Assembly (NCBI RefSeq): GCF_024700885.2
Contig: NZ_CP117014.1
Strand: one strand, 5' to 3'
Length of the DNA: 64,000 nucleotides
Source of the DNA: Escherichia coli
Lineage (GTDB): Bacteria; Pseudomonadota; Gammaproteobacteria; Enterobacterales; Enterobacteriaceae
In this document: positions 30,121-50,583 of the stretch, piece after piece
Numbering within the stretch: position 1 is the first letter of the stretch
How the letters are laid out: each line of letters opens with the position of its first letter
Made by a program: the position numbers and the translations under genes
Notes under the pieces: model-generated
The model's database searches: none
What the model saw: only the letters and a program-made list of their open reading frames with translations
Told to the model about the DNA's origin: nothing

Positions 30121-33100
30121 TTAGGCCGCATCGGCGATTATTTTACGCAGTTCATCTACCGAGTAACGCGTAGATACCATCCATGCAGGACGGTCAAAGT
30201 TCACATCAGCAACCGGGTTTGCTTCAAAATTCCAGAAACGTCCGCCAATCTTCTTAATCGCGTCTTTGGCGTTCCGTATTGTCGAGGAACCTGGTTGGTC
30301 GGCAATGAGATAAACCGCGCCAACGTCCTCGCTGACGCTCCACCAGCGCCCGCGAACACGCGCCTTAGCGCGAATCGGCTTATCATTAACCACAATGATA
30401 TAGTCATCATTCGCCGCTTCATCAGCTCTGGCTTCAGCCACTGCCGCCTGCTCTTCTCTTTTGCTTTCAGCCTGCTCAAGCCTTTCCGCGATCTCTGATT
30501 CAGTGGCCCCGCCGTTTTTCAGCGATACATAGTCCTGCCACGTTGCCGATTTGAGCGTATCCGGCAACTCATTCACATAGTCGCCGTCTTTCAACTCACG
30601 GGCGCGGCGGGTAGCCATTTCTACCAGGCGATTAACAGAAACAGCATCAGCAAAATCGTCCTTACTAATGTGTTTTTCATCAAATGCATTGATGACAGCC
30701 CCCACCTTAATCCACTGTGCTGCCGGTGATTCCAGGGGGTTATCAGCCTGAACAATGGCGAGTTTCGCTCCATCTACCCCATTATTCGCCAGCTGTTCCA
30801 ATGCCGCCCATCCATCTGCATCACTGAGTGATTTATATTGCTCAAACAATGCATCGCGCCAGGCCACCAGCGCAGAACGTGTTTTTTCGATCTTCGCCTT
30901 AATTTTCGCGATCTTGACCTGATTAAACATCCGTTCAATATCATCGATATTGCTAAAGGCTTTCATCCTGCCCTGGAATAAACGGTATGCCAGCACGGTC
31001 CTCCAGAATGATTCCAGACCTTCTCCGGACGGTTTGCGGAACAAGCTAAGAATATCTTCAGAAGTGACTTTATTAAGCGAACGACCTGACAGACCACGCC
31101 CAGCCATCCAGTTTTCGAACTCATGGGCAACATCATCCATCGTTGCCTGTGCGCCCCATGCCTGCATTCCCTGGGTGTAATCATACCCATACAATGCCTG
31201 GAGGAATCCCTCGCCGTCCACGATATTCAGCGGGTTATCACTGGCTTGTATTTTTGCCACTTCACGCTTCAGCGCCTCGTCGTTGCCATCAGGATATATC
31301 CATCGCTCAGGTGCTATATCCGATGCTCGCCCGATTTTTTGGCCTATCACGCCATCATAGGCCGATGACAGCGCGATCTGACCATCATCTGTGCGATATG
31401 CCCAGTATTTAATAGCTGACCCACCGCCCCATGCATTACCAGGTTTACCAGCAATAACATTCATTACCCCATTGCGAATAGCATCATAGAACTGATCGCG
31501 AGTAAGTATTGTTGATAGCTGGTGGCACTGAACACCACGCGCAGCCGTTGCGCGCGATTCAGCTACCCCCTCTTCAAAAGTTACCGCTTCAATCACAGAG
31601 TCAAACGGCAATGTAACGATTGACCCCGGTGCTCGAGCGTAACGACTTGCTCTATCCAGCCAGGCGATACGGCAGAGGTATTGTGCTTTTTCACCGTCAA
31701 TTTTTTCCACCCGGACAATCGCTGTTGTTTCGCGATCATCAATGACTGCACGGTAATAACTACCTTTATGCAACAGGATATTCTTGTCAGTGCGCATATA
31801 TTCCTGTGGGTTCTGAATAACATCGATACTGATATCCAGCACACCAGACTTAATAGCGCGCTCCACCTCACCACGAGAGCGTTTCATTATGGTATCCGCG
31901 TCTTTTGCCCTGGTGATCGCAAACCGCAGCACCCGCGCACGTTTTCTGTAGCTACTCAACTGCTCAAGCGCGTATTTTTGCCCATTCCTGTTCGTACCCG
32001 CTTTTATCAGGTCGTCAAGATTGCGCTGGTAATACTCTATCTGTTCCATCGCGCTTTTCAGTTCTGTCTCCATCATGCCGATATCTTTTCCGGCGGCGTT
32101 TGCCGCTTTCAGGTAGATATCGAGAGCATTGTTGGCCTCGCGCTGTGCTTTCAGTTTCAGACGTTCTTCACGCTCTTGCGCCTGGCGAGCCATGATTGCG
32201 CGGCGTTCTTCCGGGTTTGCCGCCAGCATAATGGCGCGTTCATCAGCATCATCCGCATCACCATTGGCGATCTCTGACATGTCGGATGTCATCACCATCT
32301 TGATCCAGTCTTTCTTACGTTTCAGCGTATCCAGACGGAAGTCGTCGAATGTGCCTTTGCCACAATAGTAGTGAACATTGACCTTTTCTTGCGGTGAACC
32401 TACGCGCGCACCGCGCCCATTTCGTTGGTCGATACTGGCTGGTGTCCAGGGTAGTGTCAGGTGGTGGATATCGGTTGTCCCGATGTGCAGGTTAATACCT
32501 ACTTCAGCCTTCTTGTTACAGATTATGATGCGCGTGCGACCTTCGTTATAGTCGGCGGCAATACCTTCCATGCCCTCAAGGCCAGCATCATTTTTAGCGG
32601 AGAGATAATCCTCATATTGGGCAAGTTTGCTGTAGTAGGTTTCCCATGCCCCTTCTTTGTATTCACCGTTTTTGTTTGGAGTAGGTTCGGTCGGCTTATT
32701 CACCTTCTTCAGCTTGATGCCACCAGCCTGGCTAACTGTCGTCGCATTGATAATGCCAATCTCCTGCTCCGGCATTTGCAGTGCACTGGCGATAATACGG
32801 CGCAGCTTCTGGTGCTGGGCTTTTTCATCAATAAAGACGATCTGCTTACCGTTCTTCAGACCTTCACGAAGATTTTCGATCAGCGCGGCATACTTCGGCG
32901 GGATGGGGTGCGACACCTGCTGCATATCAATGCCGGCAGCCGCAATGGCCTTCAGTATTTCAGCTTCCAGTTCAATGCTGGCACGTATTTCAACATGCGT
33001 CGGATGTTCACTAAAAGCGGTCTTCACTACCTTGCTGGTACGCGTACTGACCAGCCCGCCAGCGCCGTCTTCCTCGGCCTCATCAACATCATCTGCCACT

Positions 33101-36100
33101 TTACCGCCAGCTACTTTTGGCAAGGCATCAGCAATAGCTTTTACCTGGTCTGCAAGCTCAACGGGGAACTGGAATGTAATCGCACTGGCATACAGATCCG
33201 GGTCTATAGCAACCTTATCCATGTCACGGATGATGGAGAAGATGAAATCATCCGGTTTGTCGTTAGTGATATGCCCGTTTTCATCGACTGTCAGCTCATC
33301 ATTGCGACTTAACTCCTGAGCACGCTTACGAAGCTCTTCATAAGCAGTCTCCTGCTCCCCTGTCATCGGGATCTGCAAGGTGTTCTCGATGATGTCGGGA
33401 ATTTTAACCGTCGCTCCGACATCTGCAGCAGTCTTCAGAGTGGTCCAACGATGGAAAATACCACGCAGGCCGTCAAGGTTCTGGAAGCCCACCAGCCCCT
33501 GCTTCTCTTCCACTTCCCCGGAAATTTTCTGGACCTGAACTGTGGCTGTTTTGCCAAACACACGAACGAAATCATCAGGCGTAATGATGCCCATGCGCAT
33601 CCACTCTTCCTGCGGAATGACAGTAGACAGCATGTTGAAGGCATCAATCGGACTGTTCACCAGCGGTGTTGCCGTCAGCATGACTACACCACGCCCGTTG
33701 TTGCGTTTCATCATGTACGCAGCTTTTACAGCCATGTCGCGGGCCATCTTGGATACTGCCGGGTTAGGCAAATATGCCAGTTGTCCCGCTTCACGCCCGG
33801 CATTAAAGGAGTTGCGGTAGTTATGCCCCTCGTCGGCAATCACGCTATCGAAGTTCATATCCTCAAAGTACGGGATATTCTGCTTCTTCGTTGTACCGGT
33901 ATTCGCGGCCTGATCCTTAATCTTGTTCTTCTTCTGCGCATCACGGTGTTTACCGGACGCCAGGTCAAGACGCCCCATTTCCACAGCATTAAAGACAGCT
34001 TGCTGTGAGTTCTCCTCGATGGTTTTTTCTCGTAGCGGGATAGACGCGAATTGTTCTTTTGTCATGATGACCGTTCGCCAATTTGACGACGGGATCATGT
34101 TCATGCGCTGAACGATAACGGCGCTGGCGGACTCTTTCACAACATTTCTGGTAAGAGGCTGCCCGTTACTGTCGAGGCGTGGTTCGCCATTTTCATCAAG
34201 CACCGGCGCGGTCAGAATATTTCCGCTGTCATCACGAACTTCATCCAAACCGATAAACATCATATTGGCGAAGGCATCAGCACTGTAGAAACTCTGTGCC
34301 TCGTGATACCAGTTCTGATAAACCGCCTTCGGAACAACAATACACGTGCGTTTAGTGCGACCTGTTTCGAAGTTATACGCCTCAAGCGCAAGCGCGGTCG
34401 TGGTTTTACCCAGCCCGGTACCAAATCCCATGATGCCGCGCCCATCTTCTGACAAGCTACGAACTTCTTCATTCTGATAAGTCAGAGGAATGCGCTTTCC
34501 ACTAATCCCTTCCAGGCCAAGCGGTGCGTTAGAGTGCGTGAACGGAATGAAGCCATTGAATGCGTCGTTATAGTCACGGGCTATCTGATCCGCCTGCGGG
34601 TGGGTGCGTAACCAGTCGTTAAAGCTAACTTCCAGTTGAGCAATTTTATCCAAGTACTCGTTAGCGTTCTGCCCACGCGGTTTAACACCGTTCAGGTAGT
34701 TTTCTAACTGGTTCAGGAAGCCGTCTTTATTGTTGGCCTTCTTGAACTCATTCCCGTTTTTGCCGTTTACGGTTCGTAGTTGATAGCCGGTAAATACCCC
34801 GTCCTTACCTTCGTAATCGTCCGGAGATACCAGAATGCCATCGACGACCTTCAGATCAGGTTCAGTGTACTTAAACTCGTCATAGCCCTGCTCTGCCAGG
34901 AACTCTTTTATCAAGCGGCGATCCAGCCAGCGGGCATTCAGATTAACGGTGACTTTATTTAGTGGCGTGAAAATGCGTTTCTCTTCGATTTTCGCCAACT
35001 GACGCTCAAAGTTCGCTTTCTGCTCACCTGTTGACGCATCACGCCAGCCCACCAGCAGTGCTGTTTTGGTTGCAACATCGCCGCTGGTGGCGCGGTCCAT
35101 CGGCAGCAGACAGCCATACCCATCAATAGCGATATCATCAAATTTCGCCAGGTATTCAAGGACCGCGTCGTCGTCCTCTGGCAGTTCACCAGCAAACGCC
35201 TCACGAAAGTCGCCCAGCGTTATAGGATTAAGGGCTACATCACTAAAAAGATGTGCTATCACTTGTTCAGGACGCGTAAAGTCAATACCGGCAGCACCAT
35301 CCGTTACATCAAGTCGCCCTGCCAGAAGGTCAGAAGTGGAACCATCCTGTTTCACATTGCCAGTGAACGTCATCCAGTTTTTAGCGCCAGCTTCAGCAAG
35401 CCCATTCAGCTTAATCGCGTGCGGTGGTCCATACTTCGCAACTTCTGCTGCCGCCAGGCGGGATGCATCTGCCAGTTTGTCATCAACGTTCACCCCCAGG
35501 TTACGCAAATCAAGTGCCTTGTTGATCAACTGACCTATCAGTGCACCGCGCATAACGCGCTCCCTGTCTTTTTCTCGCTGCTTGCCAGCAAAGCGAATCA
35601 TTGCTGCCACTTCATCACTGACAACCGATGGATAGTCGGACGCGATCGCCGATATCTGGTCCCATGACAAAGCCAGAATCCCGTTTGTTGACTGGAACGC
35701 GATCTGCAGATCGCCAAACGTCGAAACACCATATCGACTTACATCAAGCGCGGAGGATTTGGTTGTCGTGTCCTTAACCCATTTCAGACCATCAAACTCA
35801 TGCCAGATACCGCCTACAAGGCGTTTATCGCCCACTTTCGCGCCCTGCCATGCCTGAGTAGTTACGCCGAGCAAATCCCAATTGATGCGACTATCAAAGC
35901 GACGAGATAGCGCGGTTTTCATCGACTCATTGGATACACGACCGTCTTTTTTCACCACCAGGGTATTGCGGAAGCTGGTACGTTCCATGTCGCCGTAAAC
36001 AAATCGCTTCCCTTCGGTTGTAAACCATTTCCCTTTGAGGAAGGTATCCCAAAGGACGTTTGCCGATTTGAGCGTCGAATCATCCGTATCGGGGATCATC

Positions 36101-36957
36101 ACCAGGAAGGCTTCCGGGTGTTTACGCAATACCCATACGTCCACCACGGTATCTGTACCTGATTCACTGAACGTACCGGAAGGCATACGATGCGCGCCCA
36201 AAAATTCCGCTTTACGGCTGACTTTATCGCGCAATTTTTTGTATTTCGTACCATCAGTCATGCCATTCGGCACCACCAATACGATAAGCCCACCAGGTTT
36301 AACCTTGTCGATCGTGCGCAGCACAAAGTAATTGCCAACGTTCTTCTCGTTTGCATATGCCGGATCAAGCCCTGCAACGCCGGAACGGCCTTCGCCAAAC
36401 GGTACGTTACCAACAGCGTGGTCATACATTGCGTCTTTCGCCGCCAGCGCCTCAAACGCCCCGATATTCACATCGTCTTCCGGGTGCAAAAGCTGGTTTA
36501 TTCGACCGGAAATCGGAGACAGCTCGGCGCTGGTCATTATCATTCCCTGCCGTTTTGTCTCCTGGAAAATACCCGTGCCAGCTGATGGTTCCAGTACGTG
36601 ACCGCCATCAATACCGTAGTCAGCAAACAGCTCCCATATACCTTCAGCCATAAACTGTGGCGTGTAGTATTCGTATTGGCTGCCCTCACCATCTGTCAGG
36701 CCGCCTTCACCGGTATACCCAGCAAGAATCTGACGTTGTTCGTCAGTTAATTTCGCCCCATCGAAGCCGGGCGGAAGGGAATTAAGAAGATTTACTGCGG
36801 CATTGTTTGCTGCCCGGCGTGTTTTCTGAATACTGACGCCATCGGCTTTCCTGACGCCAAAGGTCGCAACAGCACGTAATTTATGCAACCGACTAACAAT
36901 TTCAATCAGTTCGCCTAAGCTGGAGGCTTCACTGATTGAATGAAGTAGTTTGTCCAA
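30121..36957 (-). CDS. darB: DarB-like virion anti-restriction protein (N6-adenine methyltransferase plus helicase)
   Basis: 2278 aa (P1 DarB about 2255 aa as recalled); methyltransferase motifs LEPSAGTGIF and NVPFG; helicase Walker A GFGTGLGKTT and VIADEGHNYRN. Confidence 0.75.
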   Translation of the reverse strand: MDKLLHSISEASSLGELIEIVSRLHKLRAVATFGVRKADGVSIQKTRRAANNAAVNLLNSLPPGFDGAKLTDEQRQILAGYTGEGGLTDGEGSQYEYYTPQFMAEGIWELFADYGIDGGHVLEPSAGTGIFQETKRQGMIMTSAELSPISGRINQLLHPEDDVNIGAFEALAAKDAMYDHAVGNVPFGEGRSGVAGLDPAYANEKNVGNYFVLRTIDKVKPGGLIVLVVPNGMTDGTKYKKLRDKVSRKAEFLGAHRMPSGTFSESGTDTVVDVWVLRKHPEAFLVMIPDTDDSTLKSANVLWDTFLKGKWFTTEGKRFVYGDMERTSFRNTLVVKKDGRVSNESMKTALSRRFDSRINWDLLGVTTQAWQGAKVGDKRLVGGIWHEFDGLKWVKDTTTKSSALDVSRYGVSTFGDLQIAFQSTNGILALSWDQISAIASDYPSVVSDEVAAMIRFAGKQREKDRERVMRGALIGQLINKALDLRNLGVNVDDKLADASRLAAAEVAKYGPPHAIKLNGLAEAGAKNWMTFTGNVKQDGSTSDLLAGRLDVTDGAAGIDFTRPEQVIAHLFSDVALNPITLGDFREAFAGELPEDDDAVLEYLAKFDDIAIDGYGCLLPMDRATSGDVATKTALLVGWRDASTGEQKANFERQLAKIEEKRIFTPLNKVTVNLNARWLDRRLIKEFLAEQGYDEFKYTEPDLKVVDGILVSPDDYEGKDGVFTGYQLRTVNGKNGNEFKKANNKDGFLNQLENYLNGVKPRGQNANEYLDKIAQLEVSFNDWLRTHPQADQIARDYNDAFNGFIPFTHSNAPLGLEGISGKRIPLTYQNEEVRSLSEDGRGIMGFGTGLGKTTTALALEAYNFETGRTKRTCIVVPKAVYQNWYHEAQSFYSADAFANMMFIGLDEVRDDSGNILTAPVLDENGEPRLDSNGQPLTRNVVKESASAVIVQRMNMIPSSNWRTVIMTKEQFASIPLREKTIEENSQQAVFNAVEMGRLDLASGKHRDAQKKNKIKDQAANTGTTKKQNIPYFEDMNFDSVIADEGHNYRNSFNAGREAGQLAYLPNPAVSKMARDMAVKAAYMMKRNNGRGVVMLTATPLVNSPIDAFNMLSTVIPQEEWMRMGIITPDDFVRVFGKTATVQVQKISGEVEEKQGLVGFQNLDGLRGIFHRWTTLKTAADVGATVKIPDIIENTLQIPMTGEQETAYEELRKRAQELSRNDELTVDENGHITNDKPDDFIFSIIRDMDKVAIDPDLYASAITFQFPVELADQVKAIADALPKVAGGKVADDVDEAEEDGAGGLVSTRTSKVVKTAFSEHPTHVEIRASIELEAEILKAIAAAGIDMQQVSHPIPPKYAALIENLREGLKNGKQIVFIDEKAQHQKLRRIIASALQMPEQEIGIINATTVSQAGGIKLKKVNKPTEPTPNKNGEYKEGAWETYYSKLAQYEDYLSAKNDAGLEGMEGIAADYNEGRTRIIICNKKAEVGINLHIGTTDIHHLTLPWTPASIDQRNGRGARVGSPQEKVNVHYYCGKGTFDDFRLDTLKRKKDWIKMVMTSDMSEIANGDADDADERAIMLAANPEERRAIMARQAQEREERLKLKAQREANNALDIYLKAANAAGKDIGMMETELKSAMEQIEYYQRNLDDLIKAGTNRNGQKYALEQLSSYRKRARVLRFAITRAKDADTIMKRSRGEVERAIKSGVLDISIDVIQNPQEYMRTDKNILLHKGSYYRAVIDDRETTAIVRVEKIDGEKAQYLCRIAWLDRASRYARAPGSIVTLPFDSVIEAVTFEEGVAESRATAARGVQCHQLSTILTRDQFYDAIRNGVMNVIAGKPGNAWGGGSAIKYWAYRTDDGQIALSSAYDGVIGQKIGRASDIAPERWIYPDGNDEALKREVAKIQASDNPLNIVDGEGFLQALYGYDYTQGMQAWGAQATMDDVAHEFENWMAGRGLSGRSLNKVTSEDILSLFRKPSGEGLESFWRTVLAYRLFQGRMKAFSNIDDIERMFNQVKIAKIKAKIEKTRSALVAWRDALFEQYKSLSDADGWAALEQLANNGVDGAKLAIVQADNPLESPAAQWIKVGAVINAFDEKHISKDDFADAVSVNRLVEMATRRARELKDGDYVNELPDTLKSATWQDYVSLKNGGATESEIAERLEQAESKREEQAAVAEARADEAANDDYIIVVNDKPIRAKARVRGRWWSVSEDVGAVYLIADQPGSSTIRNAKDAIKKIGGRFWNFEANPVADVNFDRPAWMVSTRYSVDELRKIIADAA

Positions 36958-43822: not shown

Positions 43823-44116
43823 TCAATTCACATCAATGTCTTGATATGATTCGCCAGTATCGTCTTCGTCGTCAGGATCTCCTTCCACCTCTGGCCACTC
43901 AACCTCCCAGCCAACAGTTTCCAGGCTCCGCAGAACAAACACCCCATCGGCATGAATGGTATTCACGATCCCCATTGCGGAATTTGAGTTGATAAAGCGT
44001 AAATCTTGCGCAATATTTTCTTCCGAAATATCGCCTTCAAATATACGCAATGTGCCGTCATCAGAGCATTCAACAATCCCTCTAATCCCAGCGGGACTCA
44101 CAATGCTATACTTCAT
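43823..44116 (-). CDS. Small acidic protein (IddB-like position)
   Basis: 97 aa, acidic C-terminus; overlaps the stop region of the upstream 1013-aa gene. Confidence 0.3.
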   Translation of the reverse strand: MKYSIVSPAGIRGIVECSDDGTLRIFEGDISEENIAQDLRFINSNSAMGIVNTIHADGVFVLRSLETVGWEVEWPEVEGDPDDEDDTGESYQDIDVN

Positions 44117-47100
44117 TTTGCAACTCCTTCATACATCCCAAGAAAAATTCCAGCACGCCGTCATTGTTTAATACAGAGTTAGTCGCCTGCTCCGGATCGG
44201 CATACATCTGCAAGGCCATAGAAAAAATCTCAGTCGCCCTGCAATTGCTTAATGCAGGTGGCTTTGATATAAATCTGCCGCTGACAGAACTTACCGTATT
44301 TTCCATATAAATTTTAGACATATATCCATGACTTAGGTCGGTTCGCACCAAATACTCAGCACTGCCACGGCTACCAATATTATGATAAGAAACTTTACCG
44401 TTAGTTTTTGATTTAATGAAGGCTTTGGCCCTCTCCAATAGATGGGGATTTGAATGTTCTATATGGTGACCTATTTCATGCCATAATACACGCTCGTGAT
44501 CACTATTAGCATCAATTGTTATATTCCCATTTCGACTTGCAAAAGCACGAACATTGTTCTTGTGGTTAATATTTTTTAATGTAGATAAAGTCCCTCCTGA
44601 AATAATATAGGCTTTTTCAATCGTCTCGCGAATACTGTATGCTTTACGGGAGAAAGTTTCATTATCGTGACCACTTAACTGCTCTGCTTCATCAGAAATA
44701 GCAATCCCACGACTCCATTCCTTAGACTGGTCATGTGACACATTTGACGATTCAAGAATCATGTCAAATGCGGCTCTGACTTTTTTATGTACTACATTTT
44801 CAAGCGCATTAGGATAGGCTTTTTGTCCACGTGTTAATGAAGCTATTTCATATAGTTCTGCTTGCAAGTCTTCCGGTATGTCCAGATTAAAAACAAGCAT
44901 TTTTTTCAGATCATATCCAATCCCATGATCATTCTGGTGCAAAACCTCAGCAAGGTAGTCAGTGAGTTTTTCCTTATTTGACCTAACTTTATTGATTTGT
45001 TCTATAGTAAAGTCAACACGCTCCTTGATTCCGTAATATGAGGAATGCTCTGCTAATTCCACTATCTCCTTAAGCCTGACAAGTGTCTCAATATACGCAT
45101 CAGCGATCTCCTCTGCCGTTAGTTCAGAGCTAACTCCGACACTGGCTGTTATTTTCCTACCAGCCGCCATAATATCGTCGATATTATGCAAGCTCTTTTT
45201 GAATAACTTCAAAGTATTTTGGATTATGCACACCATCTCTTCTGCGCTTCCAGCTTTATTCATTTCCTTTCTAAATCTTAAAGCTGTTTTCTCTGCAATA
45301 GACGCTGGAGATTTTAAATAGTTACCTAACCAAACAAGACAACCATTGCGCAATTCATCAATACTAAAGTCATCAGGAATATGTTTTGCTGCATTATGTA
45401 AAACACGTATAAATTGTTCAGCGGGCACGCCTTCTTCTGATATGTTGCAAAACGTTTCAATATCACAATCAATATTTCTTTCATCTGCGAGCGAAGGAGC
45501 TTCATCTCCTTTTTCAATCGCGTCACGCAGTGCGTTAGCATAAAAATTGCTGCGTTGATAAGACAATAACATCGTTGTTAACACAGCGTCGCTGTATCCA
45601 TAACGTTTAGCCCACTCCTTAATCTCATTAACGGTGACATTGCGAATATAAAAACCAAGTTCCAAAAATACATTGCGCTTTATTTTTTTTGCGGACTCCT
45701 TAATTTTTTCTGACACCTTCACGATTCGGATCAAGTCCTCCACGCTGGTCGCATCAGCAATTAGCTTTGAAATGTATGGTTCGACATCTCCTGAAACCGA
45801 TTCAAACATGGCGAAATTAAGCCCTTTACCTTCGCCATACTCAGCCTCAATTTCATCAGAAACGGCAGATAAAATGCTACGCAGATCGACATCTCCGCCG
45901 CCGAACATATCGCCTAACGCTTGTTGCTGGTGAATAAGTTCATCGTTAATTTTTTGCGCCAGTTTCTTGAAAGCTGCCCCCATTCGCTTAGCGCTTCGGT
46001 TGTTGGCAACAATAAACAGAGCAAGCGCTTCTGCTTCCGGAGTGCTATCTCCAAACAATCCACGCTGTGCGATCACCTCTTCTACTGCCTGACCGTTATC
46101 TTTTGCTTCACGAACAAGGTTAATTGCTTCCTGTAGCGCGGCAATAGCCTGTTTATCCAGACCATTCAATTGCTCTATACCGTCTACCAGTCCGGTTACC
46201 GTGTCATGGTGAACATCACCTGAAAGCGACTGCATTTGCGCAAAATCGCTGGCTGCCGTATTTAATGCGGTAAGAATGTTACGCATTTCCGGATCTGGCT
46301 CTTCCGCCACCAGCCGAACAAGCCTTTCATCCTTGTACGCTTTGGCAAAAATTGCATTCTGGATGCGGTCGATAAGTTGTTTCGTTGGACGCCCATCGGC
46401 AGTAAGCAAACCTGCCGTCGCCGTATCACCTATTTCGCGCAAAAACGCACGAATAAACGCATCATTGGACCGCGCCAGTAGATTTCCATCATCTGAAGGA
46501 TTAAATAGCGCCATGACGCTCTCAGTGAGAAATTGCGCATCCGCATACGCTTTTTCACTTGCAGCCATCTCTTGCAGATCGCTGATGTTTGAATCGCGGG
46601 CAAATTGTGCGCGGTCTACATCTGTGAGTCTTTCTCGCACCAATACGGGCATAGACATTTGTGAAATGTCGTCAGGATTCAGACCAAACTCTTTTGCATG
46701 ATCGATCAGGTACTGGCGATATTCATCCGCCTGCCCTTGCTCATAGGCACGCCAGATACCCATGCTCCTTCCGTTGCCGGATTCAACAACGTTGTCCGGA
46801 CCAACTATCGGCGCTCCGTGGCTGCTCATGCCGGAATCCGTTAATTGTGCCGGGCGTAAATTGGAGGCAATACGGTTAACCTGGAGTTTGCTTGATAGCC
46901 GTGTACGGTCACGTGGCTGGAGTTCTTCCGGGAAGGCCGGATTAATCGTACCGTCAAGGTTGTTCGAAATGATCAGACTGCTGGCATCAACGACCTTAAA
47001 AGCCGTCTTTACCTCTGCCCCTTTACTGGTGACTACGTAACTACTGCGCCCCTGGCGTGTTTCTCGCCTCTCTAATGAAGAAACCAGCGCAATAACACTG

Positions 47101-47147
47101 TTAATGTCTGCTGCTTCGGATAGCGCGGAAGTAACTGACTTGTTCAA
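44106..47147 (-). CDS. Large virion/anti-restriction-cluster protein (DdrB-like position) with HExxH motif
   Basis: 1013 aa; LWHEIGHHIEH zinc-metallopeptidase-like motif near C-terminus; position in the dar operon. Confidence 0.45.
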   Translation of the reverse strand: MNKSVTSALSEAADINSVIALVSSLERRETRQGRSSYVVTSKGAEVKTAFKVVDASSLIISNNLDGTINPAFPEELQPRDRTRLSSKLQVNRIASNLRPAQLTDSGMSSHGAPIVGPDNVVESGNGRSMGIWRAYEQGQADEYRQYLIDHAKEFGLNPDDISQMSMPVLVRERLTDVDRAQFARDSNISDLQEMAASEKAYADAQFLTESVMALFNPSDDGNLLARSNDAFIRAFLREIGDTATAGLLTADGRPTKQLIDRIQNAIFAKAYKDERLVRLVAEEPDPEMRNILTALNTAASDFAQMQSLSGDVHHDTVTGLVDGIEQLNGLDKQAIAALQEAINLVREAKDNGQAVEEVIAQRGLFGDSTPEAEALALFIVANNRSAKRMGAAFKKLAQKINDELIHQQQALGDMFGGGDVDLRSILSAVSDEIEAEYGEGKGLNFAMFESVSGDVEPYISKLIADATSVEDLIRIVKVSEKIKESAKKIKRNVFLELGFYIRNVTVNEIKEWAKRYGYSDAVLTTMLLSYQRSNFYANALRDAIEKGDEAPSLADERNIDCDIETFCNISEEGVPAEQFIRVLHNAAKHIPDDFSIDELRNGCLVWLGNYLKSPASIAEKTALRFRKEMNKAGSAEEMVCIIQNTLKLFKKSLHNIDDIMAAGRKITASVGVSSELTAEEIADAYIETLVRLKEIVELAEHSSYYGIKERVDFTIEQINKVRSNKEKLTDYLAEVLHQNDHGIGYDLKKMLVFNLDIPEDLQAELYEIASLTRGQKAYPNALENVVHKKVRAAFDMILESSNVSHDQSKEWSRGIAISDEAEQLSGHDNETFSRKAYSIRETIEKAYIISGGTLSTLKNINHKNNVRAFASRNGNITIDANSDHERVLWHEIGHHIEHSNPHLLERAKAFIKSKTNGKVSYHNIGSRGSAEYLVRTDLSHGYMSKIYMENTVSSVSGRFISKPPALSNCRATEIFSMALQMYADPEQATNSVLNNDGVLEFFLGCMKELQNEV

Positions 47148-47240: not shown

Positions 47241-47609
47241 TTACCCTGCATAACCGTTGGCTTTCACCCAGCTTATGGTCTGCTCTTTTGCCTGTTCCAA
47301 CGTAAGGAACTCGCCAACATAGTTTGAGATCCCACGCAGCGCATCAATAAATTCCATTTGTGTGGACTTTGTGAACACACCGCCCAGGAAGTCAGTCACT
47401 ATCTTAGGAACTTCATCTACAACAGGATCAGTCTGTTGTTGCGGTTCCGCTGCCGGTTGCGCGGCAGTCCCCAAGCCCAATTTCAGCATCACATCAACAA
47501 TCTGCTTACCAATGGTGACGCGTTGCAATACTGGCGCCGTTTTCTGCGCCTGCATTAGATCTGATAGCTCTTTACCTAATTTCAGGCGGTCTAAAACAGA
47601 GATGGTCAT
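47241..47609 (-). CDS. Small protein (DdrA-like position)
   Basis: 122 aa; located between DarA-like and DdrB-like genes. Confidence 0.35.
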   Translation of the reverse strand: MTISVLDRLKLGKELSDLMQAQKTAPVLQRVTIGKQIVDVMLKLGLGTAAQPAAEPQQQTDPVVDEVPKIVTDFLGGVFTKSTQMEFIDALRGISNYVGEFLTLEQAKEQTISWVKANGYAG

Positions 47610-49534
47610 TAAGCACCTCCCTGCTGAATTTCAGCCAGAATGTTGATCAGGTAGTCAACTGCTGCACCAACAGTGGCTTCGTTCTCGTCGTATCGACCTG
47701 CGCTGATTAGAGCGTTTGCTGCTTCCTGCACATGATCAAGTTCAGCACTGATGACCGTCAGATCGCGGGATGTAAACTGCTCCGGCACGGATTTCAGGTA
47801 CTCCAGTGCTTTATCTGCCTCCTGATCAGCTTCACTTGCTGATTCACCAGCTTCTTCTGGCTCCGGCTCCTGTTCTGGTGCTGGTTGTGGTTGTGATTCC
47901 GGCTCAACCACATGCTCTGCTTTTACTTCGCTTGAATGATTTTGAAGGGCGTTATACACGTCCATAATGAAAAGGTTCTCCCCATCACCAAGTGGATACG
48001 CCACGTTTGGAAACGCTTTGCGGAAAAGAATTTTCACTTGCGCCTTGAATGTTTTCAGGTCACTGCCAAACAGGTCTACATAGCCATCAATATGTTTCGA
48101 CATGCTGGACACAACCAATTGGCCTGCAAAATCTTTCAGCTCATCTTCATCAGGAAGATAGAGCAACTCGTACTGGCTGACTTCTTCATCTGTCAGTTTA
48201 CGGTCATACGTAATGATACCGTGACGAGCATATTCGTAATACTGATCAGCCTGGTCAGGACGATCAAGCACGGCTTTATTTCCATCCGGCACAGCACCAA
48301 CACCAGCCGGGCGAGATTGAAGTGCATAGTGGTATTTACCTACATCCTGGCTCTCTGGTTGTGATACTGGGTTCGTCTCGGGGTCTGTCTGTGGTGGTTC
48401 GGGGTCTTCCTGCTGGCCTGGTAACACATCAACTTTATATTTATCTGCGTTATGCTCTCGGTAGGCTTTAAGTAATTTGGTTGCAGCATCTGCCAAACTG
48501 CCTCCTTTGACAGCACTGGCATCAATACTGAATTTACCTTCAGGTGCTACTATCGTAACGAAATTGTCACTGCCGGACGTGATATAATTAACTTCAGCGC
48601 CATTATCCAGCACTGTTTTTCCGTCAATGGCAAGATTATGTTTTACATGTCGCAGCTGGTCACTAAACGCTCGTTCCTTCGTTTTTTCACCTTTAGCAGA
48701 CAACAATTTATCGCGTTTTTCTTGTAATTCCTCGTTGATGGCTTTCTGGGCATCAAGTTTTTTTTGCATCTCCGTAAGAGCAGCACGCTTTTCAGTCAGC
48801 CCACGTTGCGCAACGTCCACCTGATCAATCATTATTGACCGTTCTTCTGCCAGTTTATCTGCTTCATTGAGATAACTCTCAATATCTGCCTTCATTTTGT
48901 CCTGGCGCTCTTTTGCTTTCTTAAATTTTTCGCTGTTACGCTCAATCAAATTAGATAGCGCCTGGCATACCTGGCTTAAAGAAACATCTCTCCCACCAAT
49001 CGGGGCGACAACGTGAGTTACGTTACGCTTATTAAGTAAAAACTGAAATGCAACAAGCTCGTCGTTACTCTTTATTTTTGCCCCGTCAGCTGTTGGAGAG
49101 TGGAAAATTATGCTTGTACTCTGCCCGTCAGTAAGTGGTATCTGCGCGGTCAAAACAGGGATATTAGCTACCCGACGTACACGACCGATAATCGCACCAC
49201 CAATACAATTACGTCCATTTTCATCGGTCCCGGCTTCATCAGTCCCTGCCATAATATTCGTACCATTCAGGCCACGATTCAGCGCACGGACGAAAGCTCG
49301 CATTGTTTGGGCTAACCGAATTCTGGTTGTAGTTATGGACTCAAACATAGCTTCGTCAGACACAACCAGAATTTCATTGCCCATATAGGCAAGCTCAATA
49401 TCTTCTAAGGTCGCCGCCTCAAAAATCAGGTCATCTTCGCTTAATTCTTCTGAAGACCAGCGACTTGGCACATAGCCGGGGATCGTATCAGCAAAAGTAG
49501 ACTGAATATTAATTCGTAAAGGATTGTTAATCAT
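47609..49534 (-). CDS. DarA-like internal head/anti-restriction protein
   Basis: About 641 aa from ATG 49534 (GGAGG RBS); P1 DarA about 639 aa as recalled; coiled-coil centre, acidic Pro/Glu-rich linker. Confidence 0.45.
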   Translation of the reverse strand: MINNPLRINIQSTFADTIPGYVPSRWSSEELSEDDLIFEAATLEDIELAYMGNEILVVSDEAMFESITTTRIRLAQTMRAFVRALNRGLNGTNIMAGTDEAGTDENGRNCIGGAIIGRVRRVANIPVLTAQIPLTDGQSTSIIFHSPTADGAKIKSNDELVAFQFLLNKRNVTHVVAPIGGRDVSLSQVCQALSNLIERNSEKFKKAKERQDKMKADIESYLNEADKLAEERSIMIDQVDVAQRGLTEKRAALTEMQKKLDAQKAINEELQEKRDKLLSAKGEKTKERAFSDQLRHVKHNLAIDGKTVLDNGAEVNYITSGSDNFVTIVAPEGKFSIDASAVKGGSLADAATKLLKAYREHNADKYKVDVLPGQQEDPEPPQTDPETNPVSQPESQDVGKYHYALQSRPAGVGAVPDGNKAVLDRPDQADQYYEYARHGIITYDRKLTDEEVSQYELLYLPDEDELKDFAGQLVVSSMSKHIDGYVDLFGSDLKTFKAQVKILFRKAFPNVAYPLGDGENLFIMDVYNALQNHSSEVKAEHVVEPESQPQPAPEQEPEPEEAGESASEADQEADKALEYLKSVPEQFTSRDLTVISAELDHVQEAANALISAGRYDENEATVGAAVDYLINILAEIQQGGA

Positions 49535-50147
49535 GCTCATCCTCCAGGCGCGCGATTTCTTCTTTAAGAGCACGTGTCTTAGCTACTTCCTGAGACAAGG
49601 CAGCTTTAACGTTACCCGTATCTTGCATTACTTTGTCTGACTTGCTCTGGAGTTTAGACAGTTTGTCGTTAGCATTAGCGATATCTTCACGGAGTGCATC
49701 ACGTGATTCTTTCGCTTCAGCTAATTTCTGAGCGTTAGATTTAACTCCCTGCCGCTTCTTATTTCCGTCATCAATATTTTTTGCTGCACGAGCAAGTTTT
49801 CGAGCTAATGACTTCTGGAAAGAAGTTGCTCCGCGATTAAATAAAGCCGCAAGAGATTGCCCCAAAGCCGACATTGTTTTTACTGGCTTGAACGGTACTG
49901 TTTTACCATTCAGTTTGATCCCAGATATATCACCGGTATCGTTAACCTGAACTTCCATTGTCTGTTCATCAATACCAATAAGGGTAAATGTGCGCGTCAT
50001 GATCCCATCTTTCTTCCTGCCATTACTTGCAGGGATCACCCTCGCTATCTTGTAACCACCTTTGCTGATTTCTTTGACGAGTTTTGCCAGCCCCTTTTCG
50101 TTTAACTCATCATAATTAAGAAGAACATAATTATTCTTATTTGACAT
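49527..50147 (-). CDS. Hdf-like protein
   Basis: 206 aa from ATG 50147 (AAGGAG RBS); coiled-coil; position between lydB-like and darA-like. Confidence 0.35.
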   Translation of the reverse strand: MSNKNNYVLLNYDELNEKGLAKLVKEISKGGYKIARVIPASNGRKKDGIMTRTFTLIGIDEQTMEVQVNDTGDISGIKLNGKTVPFKPVKTMSALGQSLAALFNRGATSFQKSLARKLARAAKNIDDGNKKRQGVKSNAQKLAEAKESRDALREDIANANDKLSKLQSKSDKVMQDTGNVKAALSQEVAKTRALKEEIARLEDEHD

Positions 50148-50583
50148 CCCAGTCTCCTTCACGCTTTTCGATCGTAAACTGGCGCTCTATGCAGTCATTG
50201 ATAGGGAAAATGCGATAAAGCGGATTCAGTCGGCAGTTACCGTTAGTCAATGTGACTTTCAGATCCCACTTCGTTGGCTCAAGATATTTCGTATCGATGA
50301 GCAAATACTCTTCTCTCTCACCGCGTTTTGAGGCGTCAACTGGTCGCGTTTTCCCTGAAATAACCACAGATGGATTTTTCAGGTCTTGCAACCAATATTC
50401 GATTTGAGCATTGCTGACCCAGCTTCGCTTAACACGTAGCGAAACAGGAAATGCTATAGCGGATTCTTTCACTACAGCGTCACCAATACTCAAAATCTCA
50501 ACACTCTTGCGACGAAAAATGAAACGGTCAATGATGGCAACAAATGCCATGATAAAAATGAAATAATTTCCAAAGTTACCCAT
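50137..50583 (-). CDS. LydB-like (antiholin position)
   Basis: 148 aa with N-terminal hydrophobic segment; directly after the holin candidate. Confidence 0.35.
   Translation of the reverse strand: MGNFGNYFIFIMAFVAIIDRFIFRRKSVEILSIGDAVVKESAIAFPVSLRVKRSWVSNAQIEYWLQDLKNPSVVISGKTRPVDASKRGEREEYLLIDTKYLEPTKWDLKVTLTNGNCRLNPLYRIFPINDCIERQFTIEKREGDWDVK

Follow-up and report, generated by a model that had tools for sequence, protein, structure and literature searches.

A predicted zincin-like metallopeptidase domain in a diverged DdrB orthologue of a P1/D6-like plasmid prophage of Escherichia coli

DdrB in phage P1 and in the window

Type I restriction and BREX are countered by the Dar (defence against restriction) system in P1-like phages and plasmid prophages, elements that often carry resistance genes in Enterobacteriaceae. 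In phage P1, the Dar protein DdrB was identified as a virion head protein in an LC-MS/MS analysis (39 peptides, 59.5% coverage) and reportedly helps to add DarB to the capsid. The literature on P1 also gives a dependence of DdrB on DarA/Hdf. The P1 GenBank record describes ddrB as ‘unknown protein function; possible metallopeptidase’, the record of phage JL22 names it a ‘putative metallopeptidase’, and Iyer et al. (2017, PMC5512222) described a C-terminal zincin-like metallopeptidase (MPTase) domain in the P1 protein. As relayed by these authors, who cite Lobocka (2004) and Walker and Walker (1981), P1 DdrB is cut to a 76-kDa form before packaging. They proposed that the cleavage is autoproteolytic and predicted that the N-terminal fragment, which carries the ParB domain, is the packaged part. 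Here we describe a ddrB gene from a 64,000-nucleotide (nt) stretch of Escherichia coli DNA (contig NZ_CP117014.1 of assembly GCF_024700885.2; hereafter the window) whose product ends in a domain of the same kind. A preliminary description of this stretch considered that an injected protease within the anti-restriction cluster would, if catalytic, be noteworthy; this did not hold, as the two phage records and the work of Iyer et al. precede it. The protease domain of DdrB is already known from P1, and the window allele is a diverged, unannotated orthologue. We read the window protein as the DdrB of a P1/D6-type Dar system, whose C-terminal zincin would carry out limited proteolysis in head assembly, and we assign this reading as a whole a probability of roughly 0.6.

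The window ddrB spans positions 44106..47147, stop codon included, and encodes a protein of 1013 amino acids (aa), as taken from the list of open reading frames (ORFs) and the translation. It lies on the minus strand, which the preliminary description did not give; all features below are likewise on the minus strand unless stated otherwise. Translation would begin at a TTG start codon, and AAGGGGAG, a good Shine-Dalgarno sequence, is found ∼8 nt 5′ of it. The product is 100% identical to WP_032323249.1, a RefSeq ‘hypothetical protein’ with the same coordinates (on the 100%-identical E. coli plasmid pB2C_96). Exactly this protein is present on ∼290 public contigs, each time labelled ‘hypothetical’.

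Judged by sequence comparison, the window protein is the DdrB orthologue of a P1-type Dar system. It shares 44% identity with P1 DdrB (YP_006491.1, 995 aa), and the two proteins are collinear over their full length (BLASTP 777 bits, aa 4–1011 versus 2–993). A match to phrog_2299 spans aa 12–1012, and the DdrB-like ParB superfamily domain PF18763 is found at aa 42–173 (46629..47024; E 1e-41, 142 bits versus a cutoff of 27.6). The preliminary description had placed a 1013-aa protein in the DdrB position and had proposed a comparison with P1 DdrB. The assignment is borne out by the full-length identity, by PF18763 and by the gene order hdf-darA-ddrA-ddrB-hxr, and in the full-length alignment the putative active-site motif discussed below pairs with LWHELGHHLEY of P1. 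Window and P1 DdrB thus have in common a ParB N-terminus, a C-terminal domain of the form LWHExGHHxE ... TE[IV]FSM and a position between ddrA and hxr. They differ in that the protease domains are only ∼41% identical, the central 330 residues are highly diverged, and the N-terminal half of the window allele is D6-like, with 95–98% DNA identity.

An AlphaFold2 (AF2) model of the full-length protein has a predicted local distance difference test score (pLDDT) of 81 and a predicted template-modelling score (pTM) of 0.54. In the model, the ParB domain and a helical region extend to ∼aa 440 and are followed by a predicted flexible linker at aa 440–452 (45792..45830), where pLDDT falls below 50 and where we place a module boundary. 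Beyond the linker, an all-helical region at aa 455–780 (44808..45785; pLDDT mostly 80–93) runs into the zincin-like MPTase domain at aa 783–1013 (44109..44801). The central region at aa 455–780 is variable in sequence, contains few conserved columns in alignments and matches no Pfam family above threshold. The model suggests that DdrB consists of two modules, an N-terminal one of aa 1–440 and a C-terminal one of aa 455–1013, which would be joined by the linker.

Fold, conservation and putative active site of the zincin-like domain

The last 231 residues of DdrB are predicted to form a compact globular domain (AF2 domain model, pLDDT 96.4, pTM 0.92). The model begins with a helix at aa 839–849 and strands at aa 859–862, 869–871 and 875–878, followed by the helix that carries the HExxH motif at aa 885–899 and then by further helices. 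The solved folds closest to the domain model are zincin metallopeptidases, with which it shares overall three-dimensional similarity. All of the closest structural neighbours are gluzincins, which use a Glu of a downstream helix as third zinc ligand. The motif LWHEIGHHIEH, which the preliminary description had noted near the C-terminus as a zincin-like signature, is located at aa 888–898 (44454..44486), 115 residues from the C-terminus. The same description held that the idea would fail if the motif lay in a non-globular region or were not conserved in homologues. The motif instead forms part of the 885–899 helix inside the globular domain, and it is invariant among the homologues described below, so that both the predicted fold and the invariant putative catalytic residues support the signature.

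The HExxH within LWHEIGHHIEH is the only one in DdrB. On its own, it is weak evidence, because ∼0.04 occurrences are expected by chance in a protein of this composition and because four other long reading frames of the window hold an HExxH by chance. The motif gains significance from its conservation across the family. When the C-terminal domain alone served as query, a word-indexed search for homologues gave just one match, and an exhaustive profile search was needed. We therefore searched a profile of five sequences, covering the last ∼230 residues of DdrB, exhaustively against 1.84 billion cluster representatives. The search returned 1913 proteins at E ≤ 1e-3, 647 of them at E ≤ 1e-10. Conservation was scored in 194 representatives of 50%-identity clusters that span 75% or more of the profile. 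H890, E891, H894, E897, E931, Y942 and E973 are present in 100% of these representatives, while Y947 reaches 99.5%, H895 94%, T972 95%, S976 95% and M977 93%; as the profile itself contains the motif, this conservation is partly circular. E-values nonetheless reach 1e-97 and span >200 positions, so the significance of the matches is not driven by five residues. The same set of residues is invariant in 34 full-length DdrB homologues gathered regardless of the motif, in which the central region at aa 455–780 is very variable. The family signature reads L-W-H-E-x-G-H-H-x-E ... E ... Y-x-G-K-x-Y ... T-E-[VI]-F-S-M. The zincin domain defines a large family of ∼1,900 clusters with a sharply bounded set of invariant residues.

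One listed protein, P0142 (1879 aa, E 4e-38), was considered as a family member and rejected, as its score is the sum of 26 weak matches to a tandem repeat of ∼47 residues. It is a repeat or an assembly artefact, and summed scores in hit lists can mislead in such cases.

The conserved residues can be placed on the gluzincin plan. H890 and H894 are most likely the zinc ligands of the HExxH helix, and E891 is the putative general base. E897 follows H894 by three residues on one face of the helix, resembles the second-shell carboxylate of neprilysin- and thermolysin-type enzymes and probably has that role here. The third zinc ligand would be a downstream Glu. We favour E973 in the TEIFSM segment (aa 972–977; 44217..44234), as it is invariant, stands at the N-terminus of the helix at aa 974–980 and is preceded by conserved tyrosines. 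Between the HExxH and TEIFSM helices lies a beta-rich insert containing E931, Y942 and Y947 (44307..44357). Y942 or Y947 is the candidate oxyanion-stabilising Tyr and might help to stabilise the transition state, as in gluzincins of the lethal-factor and PPEP type; E931 is a candidate for a further active-site carboxylate. In PPEP-3, the oxyanion residue Tyr190 is found seven residues before the ligand Glu197 on the next helix. The corresponding spacing in the DdrB family (Y947 to E973) has a mode of 6, and the value of 26 in the window allele is due to an insertion in its lineage.

The same features bear on whether the domain is a peptidase at all. A zincin fold could have been retained as a structural or scaffolding module that targets the protein to the capsid, or as a metal-dependent hydrolase acting on a non-peptide substrate. 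The HExxH, Glu and (with Y947 just below 100%) Tyr constellation is invariant in ∼200 diverged representatives, a pattern expected of an active peptidase and not of a pseudoenzyme, and the best structural matches are genuine endopeptidases. We therefore give a role other than peptidase only a slim chance of being right, and limited proteolysis by DdrB remains the reading that we prefer.

Among described families, the closest in concept is PF18818 (MPTase-PolyVal; Iyer, Burroughs, Anand, de Souza and Aravind, 2017). Its members resemble the DdrB domain in the three-stranded sheet, the HExxH helix, the Glu on a later helix and the variable inserts between helices, and they likewise occur in multidomain proteins associated with the phage head. 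The window domain also agrees with the gluzincin plan given by Iyer et al., in which the HExxH helix is complemented by a Glu from the second C-terminal helix; P1 DdrB is one of their examples. PF18818 did not match the window domain at E ≤ 10 and was absent among the 25 families listed for 30 family members (E ≤ 1); as this curated hidden Markov model (HMM) misses the domain, the DdrB-type clade is not represented by it. The MEROPS M34-type gluzincins (the Pro-Pro endopeptidases PPEP-1/2/3, anthrax lethal factor and ATLF-like proteins) are a further comparison. They share 10–13% identity and no HMM-level match with the DdrB domain, which differs from them by the beta-rich insert of ∼23–40 residues with the invariant E931 between helices; moreover, they are secreted toxins or adhesin-releasing enzymes, whereas DdrB is a phage head protein. 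PF07737 (ATLF) itself gave no match to the window domain, and one of the 30 members reached E = 0.016, which is below threshold. No sequence relationship was detected with MtfA (M90, Mlc titration factor A, PDB 3DL1), a cytoplasmic regulator and aminopeptidase of enterobacteria with an unrelated genomic context. Sequence searches of PDB chains, with the single protein and with a 30-sequence profile, returned nothing relevant, and matches in BFVD were to uncharacterised phage proteins only.

The darA operon, mosaic alleles and distant loci

The locus is the darA operon of a P1/D6-like plasmid prophage. Along the minus strand, the genes are lydA, lydB, hdf, darA, ddrA, ddrB and an hxr homologue; portal and pro come next. 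The hdf homologue (49527..50162; phrog_1620 Hdf-like, E 1.6e-76) and the darA homologue (47609..49573; phrog_1926, with PF18788 DarA_N at E 5e-40 and PF18789 DarA_C at E 1e-18) precede the ddrA homologue (47241..47609; phrog_1855 DdrA-like, E 4.8e-50), which is directly upstream of ddrB. Comparison with the P1 and D6 records shows that the order from hdf to hxr matches that of P1, and that darB is elsewhere on the element. In the window, a darB-like gene at 30121..36957 encodes a giant protein of 2278 aa with N6_Mtase, SNF2-rel_dom and Helicase_C domains; with this gene, the Dar gene set of the window is complete. In P1, DarB depends on DdrB to be built into the capsid.

The hxr homologue (43823..44116; phrog_2292) encodes a protein with 41% identity to P1 Hxr. 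An 11-nt overlap between this gene and the end of ddrB suggests that the two are translationally coupled. P1 hxr is annotated as ‘possible repressor; homolog of Xre’. No Pfam family, helix-turn-helix or other, matches the window homologue or P1 Hxr even at E ≤ 1, and the annotation is unsupported by these scans. The annotation raised the possibility of an ImmA/IrrE-type protease (COG2856) with an XRE repressor partner, as ImmA/IrrE is likewise an HExxH zincin and IrrE is a weak Foldseek match. We rejected this pairing, since the Hxr homologues have no helix-turn-helix. On the plus strand, antisense to ddrB, a 141-aa ORF at 46276–46701 is 64% identical to P1 IddB. Its richness in Ser, Ala and Arg and its location across from the best-conserved stretch of ddrB make it a probable antisense shadow and not a gene.

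In its DNA sequence, the window ddrB is a mosaic gene. Its first 1346 nt (to aa 449) are 95–98% identical to phage D6, after which identity ends, and the same N-terminal half is common to many E. coli, Salmonella and Shigella plasmids. The breakpoint coincides with the predicted linker at aa 440–452 (window 45792–45830). Most D6-type alleles are without the whole C-terminal half: DdrB of phage D6 ends at 454 aa, the 90% cluster holds truncated forms of 454 and 461 aa, and unrelated genes (DUF4145 in D6) come after the truncated gene. The full-length allele is rare, being found in only three of the 117 PLSDB plasmids with megablast matches. The zincin domain as such occurs in 513 PLSDB plasmids, nearly all of them P1-type and with ∼41% identity. 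The window allele itself (≥99% identity) is present in only three of the 513; elsewhere the best match is 45% identical.

Modules are also exchanged in relatives, where ParB is combined with InPase or replaced by SLT; such swapping is typical of polyvalent proteins. Among relatives from E. coli and metagenomes, P0091 and P0092 (1084 and 1009 aa) are 39% identical to DdrB over its C-terminal ∼79%, which takes in the zincin domain, and P0091 begins with an SLT lytic transglycosylase domain in place of ParB.

The truncated alleles bear on the possibility that virions package the protease domain and inject it together with the DNA to act on host proteins, for example Type I restriction complexes already engaged on the entering DNA, with the ParB domain as a tether in cis. 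D6-type phages manage without the domain, and the fact that their alleles encode the N-terminal module only fits the C-terminal half as an accessory or processing module better than as an effector. In addition, the N-terminal fragment is the part expected from published work to be packaged, and the literature explains the DdrB phenotype by the loading of DarB. We consider an injected protease very unlikely and continue to favour limited proteolysis by the zincin in head assembly.

Distant members of the family extend the genomic context well beyond P1-like elements. Most of them are proteins of ∼600–700 aa in which the zincin domain takes up the middle part, and the stand-alone proteins of ∼630 aa have no ParB module. 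The genes after stand-alone members matched no Pfam family. On four metagenomic contigs and in Xanthomonas phage Rb1, the protease gene comes after a gene whose large product is of the DarA_N(+InPase) or ‘internal head’ type and is followed by one for an SNF2/methylase giant of 2000–2500 aa. Between the DarA_N protein and the protease there is often a small protein, one of which matches DdrA at E 5.6e-5. A first scan of viral contigs had given almost only P1-like loci, and we therefore based a survey on a second scan with distant family members. It covered 75 distant loci, of which 73 have at least 3 kb of upstream sequence. A same-strand ORF with DarA_N ends <1 kb upstream of the protease gene in 44 of the 73; as remote homologues probably escape the HMM used for DarA_N, this count is a lower bound. 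Of the 75 loci, 37 have an ORF of ≥1500 aa, which is almost always downstream. The recurring cassette consists of a DarA_N(+InPase) protein, sometimes a DdrA-like protein, the protease and an SNF2/methylase giant of 1500–2800 aa. This arrangement ties the protease to cassettes for head-internal or ejected proteins. The protease is a regular part of Dar-like head-internal cassettes, with or without the ParB module.

The same arrangement invites another explanation, in which DdrB is an active protease that works in trans, trimming DarA_N proteins or the DarB-like giant for capsid loading or release, with autoprocessing as an incidental activity. P1 DarA is itself proteolytically processed, the distant protease of ∼630 aa usually sits between its two supposed substrates, and the stand-alone proteins lack a ParB module that could be set free. 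Against this, the processing of DarA and of the capsid is usually credited to the prohead protease Pro, and gene adjacency alone does not prove a relationship between enzyme and substrate. We regard a mainly trans-acting protease as possible and yet unlikely. A broader and quite improbable conjecture is that the DdrB-type zincin is the conserved core enzyme of a very widespread cassette (‘DarA_N protein – (DdrA) – protease – giant SNF2/methylase’). It would be dedicated to the maturation or release of ejected anti-defence proteins from inside the head and be distinct from the prohead protease; in phages like P1 and D6 it might moreover accompany the DNA, held by ParB, and cleave restriction complexes in cis.

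Proposed role in Dar protein processing

In the reading that we prefer, DdrB acts as a head-internal polyvalent protein of the Dar system. Its zincin domain, with zinc held by H890, H894 and the downstream Glu (preferably that of the invariant TE[IV]FSM helix), would cut DdrB itself during head assembly, as in the published autoprocessing model in which P1 DdrB is converted from 108 to 76 kDa. It may also cut neighbouring Dar cargo.

Several points weigh against this reading. Zinc binding and proteolysis are, for every DdrB, predictions only. The isolated zincin domain matches nothing in Pfam at E ≤ 10 and nothing in NCBIfam, and a Pfam scan of the 30 family members at E ≤ 1 gave only sub-threshold zincin matches among the families listed. 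E931 is an alternative third zinc ligand, as it is also invariant and has PPEP-3-like spacing: the distance from H894 to E931 has a family mode of 41 and is 37 in the window allele, compared with a His-to-Glu distance of 40 in PPEP-3. The size of the processed form does not fall into place either. A cut at the predicted linker would give fragments of ∼49 and ∼62 kDa, which do not match 76 kDa; cuts near aa 320–327 or aa 700 fit by size and are otherwise unsupported. The processing enzyme could instead be Pro, the T4-gp21-like prohead protease. SVAAEM, the cleavage sequence in P1's major capsid protein, was sought in the window with the aim of deriving a Pro cleavage motif and gave no match. 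Finally, P1 ddrB is non-essential, and D6-like phages are without the domain, which is therefore dispensable for the phage.

What this locus adds to the literature is modest. The DdrB zincin domain is covered by no Pfam or NCBIfam model, its family is large, and its synteny with DarA_N and DarB-like proteins extends far outside the P1 group. The Dar system involves six head-internal proteins to load, process and release, and the DdrB protease domain offers a concrete and cheap experimental handle on how Dar proteins are processed.

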